From an uncultured Chloroflexia bacterium (GTDB taxonomy: Bacteria > Chloroflexota > Limnocylindria > Limnocylindrales > CSP1-4), in contig CAVVCZ010000004.1 of NCBI GenBank assembly GCA_963746845.1, positions 672,001 to 736,000 of the forward strand: a DNA stretch of 64,000 bases. The letters are read 5' to 3'. Of the stretch, positions 43,361 to 55,463 are shown piece after piece. The stretch's first letter is position 1. Every line of letters begins with the position of its first letter. The position numbers and the translations under genes were made by a program. The notes beneath the pieces were generated by a model that was not told the origin of the DNA, ran no database searches, and worked only from the letters and a program-made list of their open reading frames with translations.

Positions 43361-43849
43361 GTGAGCCAGGTGCGGCGCGCCGGTCATGGACGGGCGAGCG
43401 ATGGATCCATCGTCACGTGGACCGTGGCCGAGGGTCGCCGGGGCCGGCGCTGGCGCGAGGTCATCGCCGTGGGGGAGGGGATCCGCTCGTCGCTCCTGCT
43501 CGAGCTCGATCCCGAGGGACGGTTCAGCCATCTCGAGCTGTCGACGGCCGCCGGCCTGCTGACGCTCCATCCGGAGGGCGACGGCACGCTCCACGGCAAC
43601 GTCGTGACCGCCGATGGCGTCGCGCACGTGGTCGGCCTGCCGTGGGACGCGGACACAAGCGTCCTCCTGGACGGCTCGACGGTCTGCCGCGCCGCGGCGG
43701 CCCACGACGCTGGCCACGGTTCCCTCCGGATCGGGTTGGACCTGAGCCTCCGGCCGACGTCCGACCCGCTCGACGCGATCGCCCTCGACGCCGACGGCCT
43801 GCCGGTCCTCGCGGCCGGCGCGACCTGGCCGCTCGAGCGTGGCGGCTGA
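43361..43849 (+). CDS. Hypothetical protein
   Basis: GC3-rich codon pattern directly after hflX; no recognised motif. Confidence 0.6.
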   Translation: MSQVRRAGHGRASDGSIVTWTVAEGRRGRRWREVIAVGEGIRSSLLLELDPEGRFSHLELSTAAGLLTLHPEGDGTLHGNVVTADGVAHVVGLPWDADTSVLLDGSTVCRAAAAHDAGHGSLRIGLDLSLRPTSDPLDAIALDADGLPVLAAGATWPLERGG

Positions 43850-43850
43850 G

Positions 43851-43973
43851 TCATCCACAGCGAATCCCGGCAACTTCGTGGACGGACCGTGGACAACCCT
43901 CGCAGATTCGGCCCCGAAACCGCGAAAGTCGTGGACAAGTGGGCTAGGCAGCACTCCCGCCGCCACCTACAGT
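43851..43973 (+). promoter_or_regulatory. Promoter of ncRNA copy 1 with DnaA-box-like motifs
   Basis: TCATCCACA (43851), CGTGGACGG (43877), CGTGGACAA (43888 and 43930); -35 TAGGCA (43945-43950), 17-bp spacer, -10 TACAGT (43968-43973). Confidence 0.6.
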
Positions 43974-43980
43974 AGGTCTT

Positions 43981-44074
43981 GCCCGAAGGGGCCACGAGAC
44001 CGAAAGTGACGACGCAGGTGCTTGCATCGGCGGCGGAGGCTGCGGGAGCGAGGTTCCTTCGGGCGTTTCGTTGT
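43981..44074 (+). ncRNA. Putative novel structured small RNA, copy 1
   Basis: 13-bp closing stem GCCCGAAGGGGCC/GGTTCCTTCGGGC, internal bubble, apical stem with CTTG loop, T-rich tail; begins after a 7-nt gap from the -10. Confidence 0.65.
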
Positions 44075-44079
44075 GCCCG

Positions 44080-44655
44080 TCAGATGCCGACCGGGACGGT
44101 CGTGCACCGGACCGGGGCCGCGCCGGCCGGGCGGGTCATCGTCCGAGCGGCCTCGAACATCCCGGTCCAGGCCGCCGGGCCGCCCGCCCCCTCGAACGCG
44201 GCCTGCGGGCTGACCCCTCCGCCGGCCGGGTCCACCGACGTGCGCCGCGCGGCGACCATCGCCTCGTAGGCGACGAACAGGCGGTCGAGCTGGGCCATCG
44301 ACGGAGCACCCGGCGCCCAGCCTGCGGCGATCGCGGCCTGGCCTCGTCCCTGCTCCAGCTGGGCGGTGATCGTCGTCGCCAGCTGGTCGGCCTTCGTCGC
44401 CTGGCCCGCGGCCACGGCCGCCTCGAACGACAGGCTGAGCTGGGAGCCGATCCCGGTATCGGGGTTGCCGACGGCCGTGAACAACGCCCCGAACGCGTTG
44501 CAGAACGCCGAGCCGAACTCCTCGTAGGTCGCGGCACGAGCGGGGCTGGAGTCGGACGGCTTTGCGCCGCCCGGCTCCCCACTGCGGCAGCCGACGCACA
44601 GACCCGCGACCAGGACCATCGCGATCGCGATCGCTCGCGTCGAGGGCTGGGTCAT
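44080..44655 (-). CDS. Hypothetical lipoprotein
   Basis: Signal peptide with lipobox-like LCVGC, Ala-rich helical body. Confidence 0.65.
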   Translation of the reverse strand: MTQPSTRAIAIAMVLVAGLCVGCRSGEPGGAKPSDSSPARAATYEEFGSAFCNAFGALFTAVGNPDTGIGSQLSLSFEAAVAAGQATKADQLATTITAQLEQGRGQAAIAAGWAPGAPSMAQLDRLFVAYEAMVAARRTSVDPAGGGVSPQAAFEGAGGPAAWTGMFEAARTMTRPAGAAPVRCTTVPVGI

Positions 44656-44704
44656 GTCGATCCTGCTTTCCGCTCGAGTGTGCACCCCGGGTCGCGCGTC
44701 CGGA

Positions 44705-44800
44705 TGTGGGAACGCCGTGGACAACCCTCGCGGTTGCGACACGGATGACGCCGAGCTCGTGGAAAAGACGCTGGACGGGGCGGTTCGTTTCACGTACTGT
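44705..44800 (+). promoter_or_regulatory. Promoter of ncRNA copy 2 with DnaA-box-like motifs
   Basis: TGTGGGAAC (44705), CGTGGACAA (44716), CGTGGAAAA (44758); -35 TGGACG (44772-44777), 17-bp spacer, -10 TACTGT (44795-44800). Confidence 0.6.
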
Positions 44801-44807
44801 TCGTCGT

Positions 44808-44900
44808 GCCCGGAGGGGCCTCGAACATCTAGTGATCCGATTGGTACTTGTATTGATCGGAACAGCCAGTGATCGACGGTTCCTTCGGGCGTTTTCGTGT
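44808..44900 (+). ncRNA. Putative novel structured small RNA, copy 2
   Basis: Closing stem GCCCGGAGGGGCC/GGTTCCTTCGGGC, 11x11 bubble, 11-bp apical stem TCCGATTGGTA/TATTGATCGGA with CTTG loop, GTTTT tail; begins after a 7-nt gap from the -10. Confidence 0.7.
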
Positions 44901-44947
44901 CCGCCGCTCGCCGGTCGGGGCTGGACCGCCGCTGGCACAATCGGGCG

Positions 44948-45688
44948 ATGAAGATCACCGACGGGATCCATCGACTCGGCCCGGGCCTGGTCAACGTGTA
45001 CCTCCTCGAGGAGGCCGGCGGCATCACGATCGTCGACGCGGGGATGCCCGGTGACTGGTCGGACCTGCTGGCCGAGCTGGCGGCGATGGGCCGCTCCCTC
45101 GATGACGTTCGCGCCGTCGTCCTGACCCATGGGCACTCGGACCACATCGGGTTCGCCGAGCGCGCGCGGACCGAGCGCCACCTCCCGGTGTCGGTCCACG
45201 AGCTCGACGCGGCGCTGGCTCGCGGCGAGGTGAGCAGCTCGAGCAAGGACGGCGGTCCCGTCAGCCTGATCCCGCTCCTGAAGTTCATGCTGCTCGGCCT
45301 GCGGCGGGGCGGCCTCAAGTCCGTCCACGTCGGCGAGGTCGCGACATACGGCGACGGGGTCACCCTCGACGTCCCGGGCGCCCCGACCGTCATCCACCTG
45401 CCGGGTCACACGCCGGGGAGCGCGGCCCTCCACGTCGCGTCACGCGACGCGCTCCTCATCGGCGACGCGCTCGCGACCGTCTCGGCCGTGAACGGGAGGA
45501 CGGGCCCGATGATCGCGCCGTACACGGCCGAGCCGGCGCAGGCGATCGCGTCCCTCGACCGCCTGGACGGCATCGAGGCCGGGTGGGTGCTGCCGGGCCA
45601 TGGCCAGCCGTGGACGGGCGGTGTGGCGGAGGCGGTGCGCCGGATCCGGGCGGCGGGACCGGAGGGGATGGGTCGGCCGGCGGCCTGA
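44948..45688 (+). CDS. MBL-fold metallohydrolase
   Basis: VDAG, THGHSDHIG, PGHTPGS, IGD, LPGHG. Confidence 0.92.
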   Translation: MKITDGIHRLGPGLVNVYLLEEAGGITIVDAGMPGDWSDLLAELAAMGRSLDDVRAVVLTHGHSDHIGFAERARTERHLPVSVHELDAALARGEVSSSSKDGGPVSLIPLLKFMLLGLRRGGLKSVHVGEVATYGDGVTLDVPGAPTVIHLPGHTPGSAALHVASRDALLIGDALATVSAVNGRTGPMIAPYTAEPAQAIASLDRLDGIEAGWVLPGHGQPWTGGVAEAVRRIRAAGPEGMGRPAA

Positions 45689-55365: not shown

Positions 55366-55463
55366 GCCGACAAAGGCAAACCCGGGGTGACCCGGGGACG
55401 CAAAGCCACGGGACTCGCGCGGTTGGTCCGGACCGGCGCGTCGAGTCAGCCGGGTTGCCGAAG
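55366..55463 (+). ncRNA. c-di-GMP-I (GEMM) riboswitch
   Basis: GGCAAAC-CCGGG-GTGA-CCCGG-GGACGCAAAGCCACGGG...AGTCAGCCGGGTTGCCG: P2 with GNRA loop, GCAAAG junction, P3, G20/C92 equivalents. Confidence 0.9.

Follow-up and report, generated by a model that had tools for sequence, protein, structure and literature searches.

What are the two short hairpin-forming segments that flank a lipoprotein-like gene in the genome of an uncultured Limnocylindria bacterium, and what controls them? The question arises in a stretch of 64,000 nucleotides (hereafter the window; contig CAVVCZ010000004.1 of assembly GCA_963746845.1, positions 672,001 to 736,000), in which a reading of the letters had picked out two paralogous structured RNAs with promoters of their own. 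This original prediction took the pair for an undescribed small RNA (sRNA) family and likened their shape to a miniature 6S RNA. Our analysis upholds the family, with its conserved promoters, and gives up the 6S-like shape. Both copies are real, and they are two of five in this genome, for which reason they are called types D and E here. Together the five constitute an sRNA family that is new to the databases and robustly linked, across genomes, to predicted boxes for the replication initiator DnaA, a link from which we infer the mechanism set out below. The explanation we favour, and hold to be probable, is that D and E are stand-alone sRNA genes of a five-member Limnocylindria sibling family (types A to E) transcribed under the control of DnaA.

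Both segments lie exactly where they had been placed (43981-44064 and 44808-44890) and fold on the plus strand into long hairpins, with energies of -46.6 kcal/mol for type D and -46.4 kcal/mol for type E. Among 200 dinucleotide-preserving shuffles of either element none was as stable, and the corresponding z-scores are -3.5 (D) and -5.9 (E). The minus-strand folds are weaker (-34.6 and -34.3 kcal/mol, respectively) because two G.U pairs of the closing stem turn into C-A oppositions on the other strand. This closing stem, GCCCGRAGGGGCC/GGUUCCUUCGGGC, is 13 bp long in all five RNAs and includes the two G.U pairs without exception. The AGTGA on the 5' side, the CUUG-capped apical stem and the GTTT(T) tail that had been described with it are likewise present. 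The supposed bubble of type E, by contrast, is no bubble: its two strands, which had been read as near-direct repeats, pair with each other, since the motif CA(U)CUAGUG that occurs on both is self-complementary and yields a two-fold symmetric duplex with one bulged U per side. Types D and E also share an apical hairpin of the form GGUR-YUUR-YAUY, the first and last loop bases of which covary (C..G with U..A).

All five types have orthologues across the genus. For type E, 32 distinct sequences give 35 pairs with 98.2% paired cells and 15 compensatory pairs; no shuffle out of 500 reached the observed value on four of five measures (one did so on the fifth), and sliding the partners by 1-3 columns as a control left pairing at only 30-48%. 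Type D is less strongly supported. Its 16 genus orthologues give 31 pairs, 96.6% paired, of which four are compensatory, and only small internal loops; 71 of 500 shuffles also reach that count of compensatory pairs, while no shuffle attains the cell counts. When the set is widened to 59 type D sequences, good alignment is limited to the closing stem and the apical hairpin. Covariation of the apical stems, which the two copies had seemed to show, is confirmed as compensatory change among these orthologues. Type A has 55 pairs, 13 of them compensatory, and the stems of types B and C are kept, with compensatory change at 5/21 pairs (38 sequences) and 3/23 pairs (26 sequences), respectively. The closing stem behaves differently. 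Its two G.U pairs (stem positions 10 and 11) do not change in any of six alignments (16/16, 16/16, 20/20, 26/26, 59/59 and 32/32 sequences), and because its sequence stays strict while the other stems drift by compensation, the pattern suggests that the stem itself may be recognised by something, perhaps as a common handle.

The three further copies emerged from a search of the contigs of the window's genome, a metagenome-assembled genome of a Limnocylindria (Chloroflexota) bacterium (3.56 Mb in 12 contigs, 92% complete). They have matching arms, tails and promoter layout, and covariance models of types B and C (R1 and R2) detected no sixth member in that genome. Types A, B and C have in common a 13-nt apical loop, GAGAUCACAUCAA, with variants of the form GAU(C/G)(A/G)C(A/C)UCAA. 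In other genomes the D and E genes stand in tandem, 350-900 bp apart. Palindromic units in intergenic DNA, the first copy between convergent genes, could in principle be mobile repeats of the REP (repetitive extragenic palindromic) or MITE (miniature inverted-repeat transposable element) kind, or plain terminator hairpins. Such a repeat would be expected in many dispersed copies that lack promoters. The genome instead holds five, each in a conserved syntenic place and each with its own conserved promoter and box array, and we found neither target-site duplications nor dispersed copies; a repeat of this type is ruled out by the five promoter-bearing copies, and this whole explanation is scarcely credible.

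Transcription would start, for each gene, at the G of GCCCG, downstream of what reads as a promoter of the sigma-70 type. The TACWGT -10 elements of D and E, their 17-bp spacers to a -35 element with four of six matches and the 7-nt gap to the first G are all as originally noted. All five types have a short U-tail and a TAnnnT -10 box that precedes the first base by 7 nt, and the closing stems of orthologues run on into G/C-UUU(U)C tails. When loci from other genera were retrieved by the stem arms only, 27 of 33 instances had TAnnnT 6-8 nt before the RNA.

The likeness of D and E runs past the promoters to about -105, some 95 nt further upstream than the hairpins, and this part had been missed at first reading. 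It includes two shared boxes, GTGGACAACCCTCGC at 43889 and 44717 and, in addition, TCGTGGAMAAG. When the loci are set in register at the start of the RNA, 2-4 boxes of the GTGGAYAA type are seen upstream of every gene, the proximal one lying at about -50, 5-6 bp upstream of the -35 element; it is found in types A-D and in 15/16 type E sequences. Type C has a further box at -83 (18/18), and types A and B have weaker same-sense boxes near -84 together with inverted TCCACA-type boxes at -100 to -117. This first alignment drew on loci fetched with a pattern that itself demanded the proximal box, so the test was repeated without that requirement. Among the 33 arms-only instances from other genera, the exact proximal box was present in 26 and a distal box in 23, and most of the others are one-letter variants. 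In f4, one of the bacterial families compared below, two boxes near -51 and -84 precede the RNA in 8/8 inspected matches of a model built from the RNA only.

We take GTGGAYAA to be the complement of the general DnaA box, the consensus of which (TTATCCACA / TTGTCCACA) it matches. The 8-mer is scarce in the window's genome: there are only 43 sites on both strands together, nine of them inside the five sRNA promoters. The 450-bp spacer between dnaA and dnaN (both genes Pfam-confirmed) has GTGGACAAC twice plus weaker copies in both orientations, and the boxes of the sRNA genes are identical with those found there. From the motif cluster, the weaker boxes facing both ways and the AT-rich repeats between dnaA and dnaN, this spacer is by all appearances a canonical oriC. 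At C1:208390-208850, the probable oriC, four same-sense boxes and five opposite-sense TCCAC-type boxes are followed by an AT-rich stretch with ATGATGACGG repeats. The same motif precedes a ParA-type ATPase gene (C4:1119023), rsmG/gidB (C1:280816), a TetR gene (C4:18988) and a SnoaL-like gene (C4:792186), and at these four protein genes the box is 28-31 bp from the -10 element, the same distance as at the sRNA promoters. Because it fills the oriC spacer and precedes rsmG and the parA-type gene, we read the upstream GTGGAYAA sites as DnaA boxes, to which DnaA would bind. A separate locus (C4:231720-232400) combines three DnaA-type boxes and a promoter with a leader of ~100 nt whose ends pair (CACCGG...CCGGUG), followed by an open reading frame (ORF) of 147 aa; the ORF has no Pfam family and the leader no Rfam match.

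The boxes could belong to some other transcription factor with a similar site, given that the proximal copy is often CGTGGAYAA rather than TGTGGAYAA and that the assignment to DnaA is made from sequence alone. Such a factor would, however, have to share a motif that fits the general DnaA box, fills the dnaA-dnaN spacer beside AT-rich repeats and also stands before rsmG and a parA-type gene, two places where DnaA boxes are classically found, and we think this quite unlikely. Another possibility is that the functional unit is the DNA, that is, an array of boxes that titrates or recycles DnaA in the manner of datA, DARS or the clusters of Bacillus subtilis, with the hairpin unit only insulating or modulating it. 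Three or four phased boxes per locus, five dispersed loci and the presence of both orientations in types A and B would suit such a role, for which one report also counts, in that it describes stable complexes of B. subtilis DnaA at intergenic box clusters outside oriC (PMC2533591). Yet conservation is higher in the RNA part than in the stretches that separate the boxes, compensatory changes preserve RNA pairs (among them the invariant G.U pairs, which are mismatches in DNA), and promoters of protein genes have the same 28-31 bp between box and -10, which points to transcriptional control. A purely DNA-based function is accordingly an improbable account of these loci, and we retain DnaA-controlled transcription as the preferred one. 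The features concerned are collected in Table 1.

Table 1. Coordinates of the sRNA genes, their predicted promoters, tails and boxes, and the gene between types D and E. Positions refer to the window unless a contig (C4, C5, C6) is named; negative numbers count from the first base of the RNA.
Feature	Position	Strand	Remarks
sRNA gene, type D	43981..44064	+	84 nt; rod with 13-bp closing stem, internal loops and apical GGUG-CUUG-CAUC hairpin
sRNA gene, type E	44808..44890	+	83 nt; near-continuous hairpin, two-fold symmetric core CA(U)CUAGUG on both strands, apical GGUA-CUUG-UAUU
sRNA gene, type A	C4:521974-522160		about 185-187 nt, multi-branched; two GNRA-capped, covarying hairpins; ~90 nt upstream of the inorganic pyrophosphatase gene ppa
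sRNA gene, type B	C6:166183-166107		77 nt, rod
sRNA gene, type C	C5:350490-350416		about 74-75 nt, rod
Predicted promoter, type D	43945..43973	+	-35 TAGGCA (43945-43950), 17-bp spacer, -10 TACAGT (43968-43973); 7-nt discriminator AGGUCUU up to +1
Predicted promoter, type E	44772..44800	+	-35 TGGACG (44772-44777), 17-bp spacer, -10 TACTGT (44795-44800)
Tail, type D	44065..44075	+	GUUUCGUUGUG; with the closing stem, presumed intrinsic terminator and 3' end
Tail, type E	44891..44900	+	GUUUUCGUGU; presumed terminator U-run
Proximal DnaA box (predicted), type D	43931..43938	+	GTGGACAA; at -50
Distal DnaA box (predicted), type D	43889..43896	+	GTGGACAA; at -92; exact box at -93..-91 in 17/17 type D sequences
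Third, degenerate box, type D	43878..43885	+	GTGGACGG; at -103, 11 bp from distal box; orthologues have GTGGGAAC or GTGGACGG here
Inverted box-like 9-mer	43851..43859	+	TCATCCACA; candidate from reading the sequence; directly after the stop codon of the upstream ORF
Proximal box, type E	44759..44766	+	GTGGAAAA, degenerate here; GTGGAYAA in 15/16 type E sequences
Distal DnaA box (predicted), type E	44717..44724	+	GTGGACAA; at -92; 16/16 type E sequences
Third, degenerate box, type E	44706..44713	+	GTGGGAAC; at -103
Lipoprotein-like gene between the two sRNA genes	44080..44656	-	from the ORF list; no Pfam family; outside the element

The distribution of the family was followed in sets of genomes that are samples, so that a zero below reads as not found rather than as absent. 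A pattern combining box and arm matched 24/24 other genomes of the genus (23/23 when the unpublished genome G010 is set aside) and 0/16 of the small-genome family f2, while the arms by themselves matched 70/91 genomes of family f1 and 0/209 across four other families of the class; reversed control patterns gave no matches in either scan. The RNA-only covariance model R2 found members in f1 (3/3) and f4 (10/10) and in 0/137 genomes of other Chloroflexota families, including one of f2; its scan of f3 gave 0/41 in a run that had no positive control genome. A further model, R3, matched 35/44 genomes of f1 and 5/50 of f4, with 0/6 in f2, 0/49 in f3 and 0/1 in f5. The homologues that the original prediction had called for are thus found with covariance models in f1 and f4, and the family is present, boxes included, in these two family-level lineages of the class and was not found elsewhere in the genomes sampled. 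When one genome per species was scanned for the exact arms, at least 121 stretches matched, and the 80 listed are nearly all labelled Chloroflexota. We inspected ten loci among the matches listed, eight with non-Chloroflexota labels and two labelled Dehalococcoidia or Anaerolineaceae: six are chance matches and four are true members, which probably sit in mislabelled bins. The HflX protein encoded nearby has relatives at 81-92% identity, nearly all of them in metagenome-assembled genomes labelled Candidatus Limnocylindrales, Limnocylindria or Chloroflexota and a few under other labels. Contigs labelled Verrucomicrobiia, Patescibacteria, Steroidobacteraceae and Zixibacteriota were also seen to carry 82-92% identical HflX or true members of the RNA family, and these bins are probably mislabelled or mixed.

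Comparison with known RNAs bore out the proposal that the family is undescribed, no member having an Rfam match: scans with Rfam 15 of the relevant part of the window and of the type A and B loci (at the gathering threshold and at E<=10) gave no match on the elements, nor did a scan of the type C locus at E<=0.1. A malK-III RNA match at 44653-44743 on the minus strand, over the 5' region of the lipoprotein gene (19.2 bits, E 0.29, against a cut-off of 50), was set aside as probably due to chance. 6S RNA is about 180 nt long, and its large central bubble imitates an open promoter. The notion that the present RNAs are miniature versions that bind RNA polymerase draws on their rod shape and paired 5' and 3' ends, and on the lack of a 6S RNA above the Rfam cut-off in this genome, where the best RF00013 score is 18.9 bits, away from the elements, against a cut-off of 46.4. 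It does not survive closer inspection. The five RNAs range from 74 to 187 nt, the rod-like members B to E from 74 to 84 nt (D and E 83-84 nt), without a large bubble resembling an open promoter; type E is an almost continuous duplex, 98% paired; and RF00013 has no match on the elements at E<=10. We regard a 6S-like role as very unlikely. The conserved stem that joins the two ends and the variable inner modules are also reminiscent of bacterial Y RNAs, which partner Ro (Rsr) proteins. A Y-RNA/Ro system was rejected because no such protein was found: TROVE-domain Ro proteins (PF05731) have no match in the window's genome, at its 92% completeness, whereas control genomes matched, and there is no Rfam match either. 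Elsewhere in the window, positions 55366-55463 on the plus strand match the c-di-GMP-I-GGC riboswitch aptamer model RF03167 with 66.9 bits, its gathering score being 59.

The genes around the five loci bear on whether the RNAs are independent. Downstream of type D lies the 3' end of a gene in convergent orientation, and a YbaK-like gene is likewise convergent with type C, so that at least these two are stand-alone RNAs. No conserved protein neighbour was found, the downstream genes differing between types and between families. About 90 nt downstream of type B, before the phosphorylase gene, the stretch GGCAUCCCGGUGUCGGUACGUCCGUCGGGC on the minus strand recurs with hardly any change in several of the genus's genomes, and may be a further conserved RNA element. 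No partner emerged from searches for base pairing. Duplex energies with the start regions of dnaA, dnaN, parA and hflX fall within the background of 1500 random windows (best p~0.03 among 24 tests), and no complementarity of 8 nt or more to oriC involves the conserved motifs. The idea that the type E motif CUAGUGAUC pairs with GAUCAC in the loop of types A, B and C was rejected because the loops vary (GAUGAC, GAUCGC) while E is constant. The loop GAGAUCACAUCAA resembles a segment of 23S rRNA, GAGUUCACAUCGA (C4:1251280), at 11/13 positions, a likeness that we judge to be chance, since by our estimate a match this good to some position in rRNA would arise about 1 time in 20 per strand and motif and since the loop varies where the rRNA does not.

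Several observations weigh against stand-alone RNAs under DnaA control, in addition to the sequence-only footing of DnaA binding mentioned above. A scan of 43800-45000 with a strict consensus of the E. coli type called 0 promoters and 0 terminators, the hexamers being weak by that standard, so that the promoter reading draws on conservation and not on hexamer strength. In another genus, two type E copies (L186 and L192) lack boxes altogether, and of 82 global exact-arm instances, a set that includes chance matches and degenerate boxes, only 44 show an exact box within the narrow interval examined. No trans target was found; sequences complementary to the conserved motifs turned up solely within coding sequences and in the RNA genes. 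Two RNA data sets of equal size (X5 and X6, probably one soil data set filed twice) each stand at 7% of sampled words, and the only contigs from RNA libraries at the locus belong to relatives (90-95% identity) and extend over the promoter, starting near -87. Such contigs may be DNA carry-over or read-through, and since they derive from relatives and include promoter DNA they show neither the start nor the end of a transcript. Finally, types A, B and E precede genes on the same strand (ppa, a PNP_UDP_1 phosphorylase gene and an MBL-fold hydrolase gene, respectively), which would allow a role as leaders.

In that case the elements would be cis-acting leaders or attenuators, the hairpin and U-run forming a regulated terminator in a 5' untranslated region and the short RNA being a by-product. 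Type E lies 57 nt upstream of the hydrolase start, A and B have the placement just described, and each arm can, as read, fold on itself (GCCC-GAAG-GGGC and CC-UUCG-GG), so that a switch is conceivable. A leader function is hard to reconcile, however, with the convergent genes that D and C face, with downstream genes unrelated to one another, with the occurrence of the same RNA types in different contexts in f4 and with conservation of the whole RNA, beyond what makes a terminator. We consider it unlikely, and return to sibling sRNA genes under DnaA control as the better account.

On that account, each gene would be transcribed from its own promoter, and the ends of the RNA would pair into the closing stem, which together with the U-run probably terminates transcription and protects both ends. 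Occupancy of the phased array by DnaA, and hence the state of replication initiation, probably sets the amount of RNA, in whichever direction DnaA acts at these promoters. The RNAs would then act in trans through their inner modules: the apical loop in A, B and C, the apical hairpin in D and E, and the symmetric duplex in E. For D and E, binding of a protein, as decoy or scaffold, is favoured over pairing through a seed because nearly all conserved bases are inside helices and E has the symmetric duplex; the loop of A, B and C could serve either purpose. The protein decoy that the original prediction also raised would suit these conserved double-stranded modules. A more specific prediction is a feedback loop in which RNAs induced by DnaA bind DnaA itself or another initiation or segregation factor and so throttle or time initiation. 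This is tentative and, in our estimation, rather unlikely; if true, it would add a layer of control by RNA to replication in a lineage that lacks the known regulators.

Should DnaA indeed drive five structured RNAs, the status of replication would feed into a post-transcriptional or protein-sequestering layer of regulation. The fixed geometry of boxes and promoters makes this idea directly testable in vitro with recombinant DnaA. The family also makes a well-supported new entry for RNA databases, including a multi-branched member of ~185 nt with two GNRA loops, and marks the Limnocylindria, which are abundant and uncultured in soil and freshwater, as a place to look for new RNA biology.

Sibling sRNAs under a common regulator are well known, among them Qrr with LuxO and sigma-54, GlmY/Z, RsmX/Y/Z and CsrB/C. 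The Qrr1-5 RNAs of Vibrio are described in one source as five such siblings (10.1101/2021.01.08.425859). The likeness to types A-E lies in the presence of several paralogues per genome, every RNA gene having a promoter and a terminator to itself, in a common regulator site and in shared RNA modules, all of which are found at the five loci here. In contrast to Qrr, the putative regulator here is DnaA, conservation is highest in the closing stem and not in an unpaired seed, and the two families are unrelated in sequence and by Rfam. A functional parallel is CcnA of Caulobacter crescentus, reported as a single 182-nt non-coding RNA (ncRNA) gene inside the origin, with CtrA boxes, whose product pairs with the ctrA and gcrA mRNAs, and which its authors call one of the first in what is a rare class, the bacterial cell-cycle ncRNAs (PMC8959179). 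Both cases would be small ncRNAs with transcription tied to the replication and cell-cycle machinery, a tie that for the A-E family is predicted from the boxes. They differ in that types A-E are five dispersed genes away from oriC, with predicted DnaA boxes and unrelated sequence.

DnaA itself is both the initiator of replication and a transcription factor for a few protein genes, and E. coli dnaA, nrdAB and mioC have DnaA-regulated promoters. No DnaA-controlled sRNA family was found in the literature searched, which comprised open-access full text. One study makes the claim that boxes within a leader RNA may be bound by E. coli DnaA (PMC10989985); no DnaA boxes were found inside the A-E RNAs. 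For the gidAB-parAB region of Pseudomonas aeruginosa, another report presents DnaA as a transcription factor acting at promoters with upstream boxes (PMC13438810). As at these DnaA-regulated promoters, the boxes of the present family adjoin the -35 element, and the same geometry recurs here upstream of rsmG and the parA-type gene. The known targets are protein-coding, whereas in the window's genome five of roughly a dozen box-bearing promoters precede ncRNAs.

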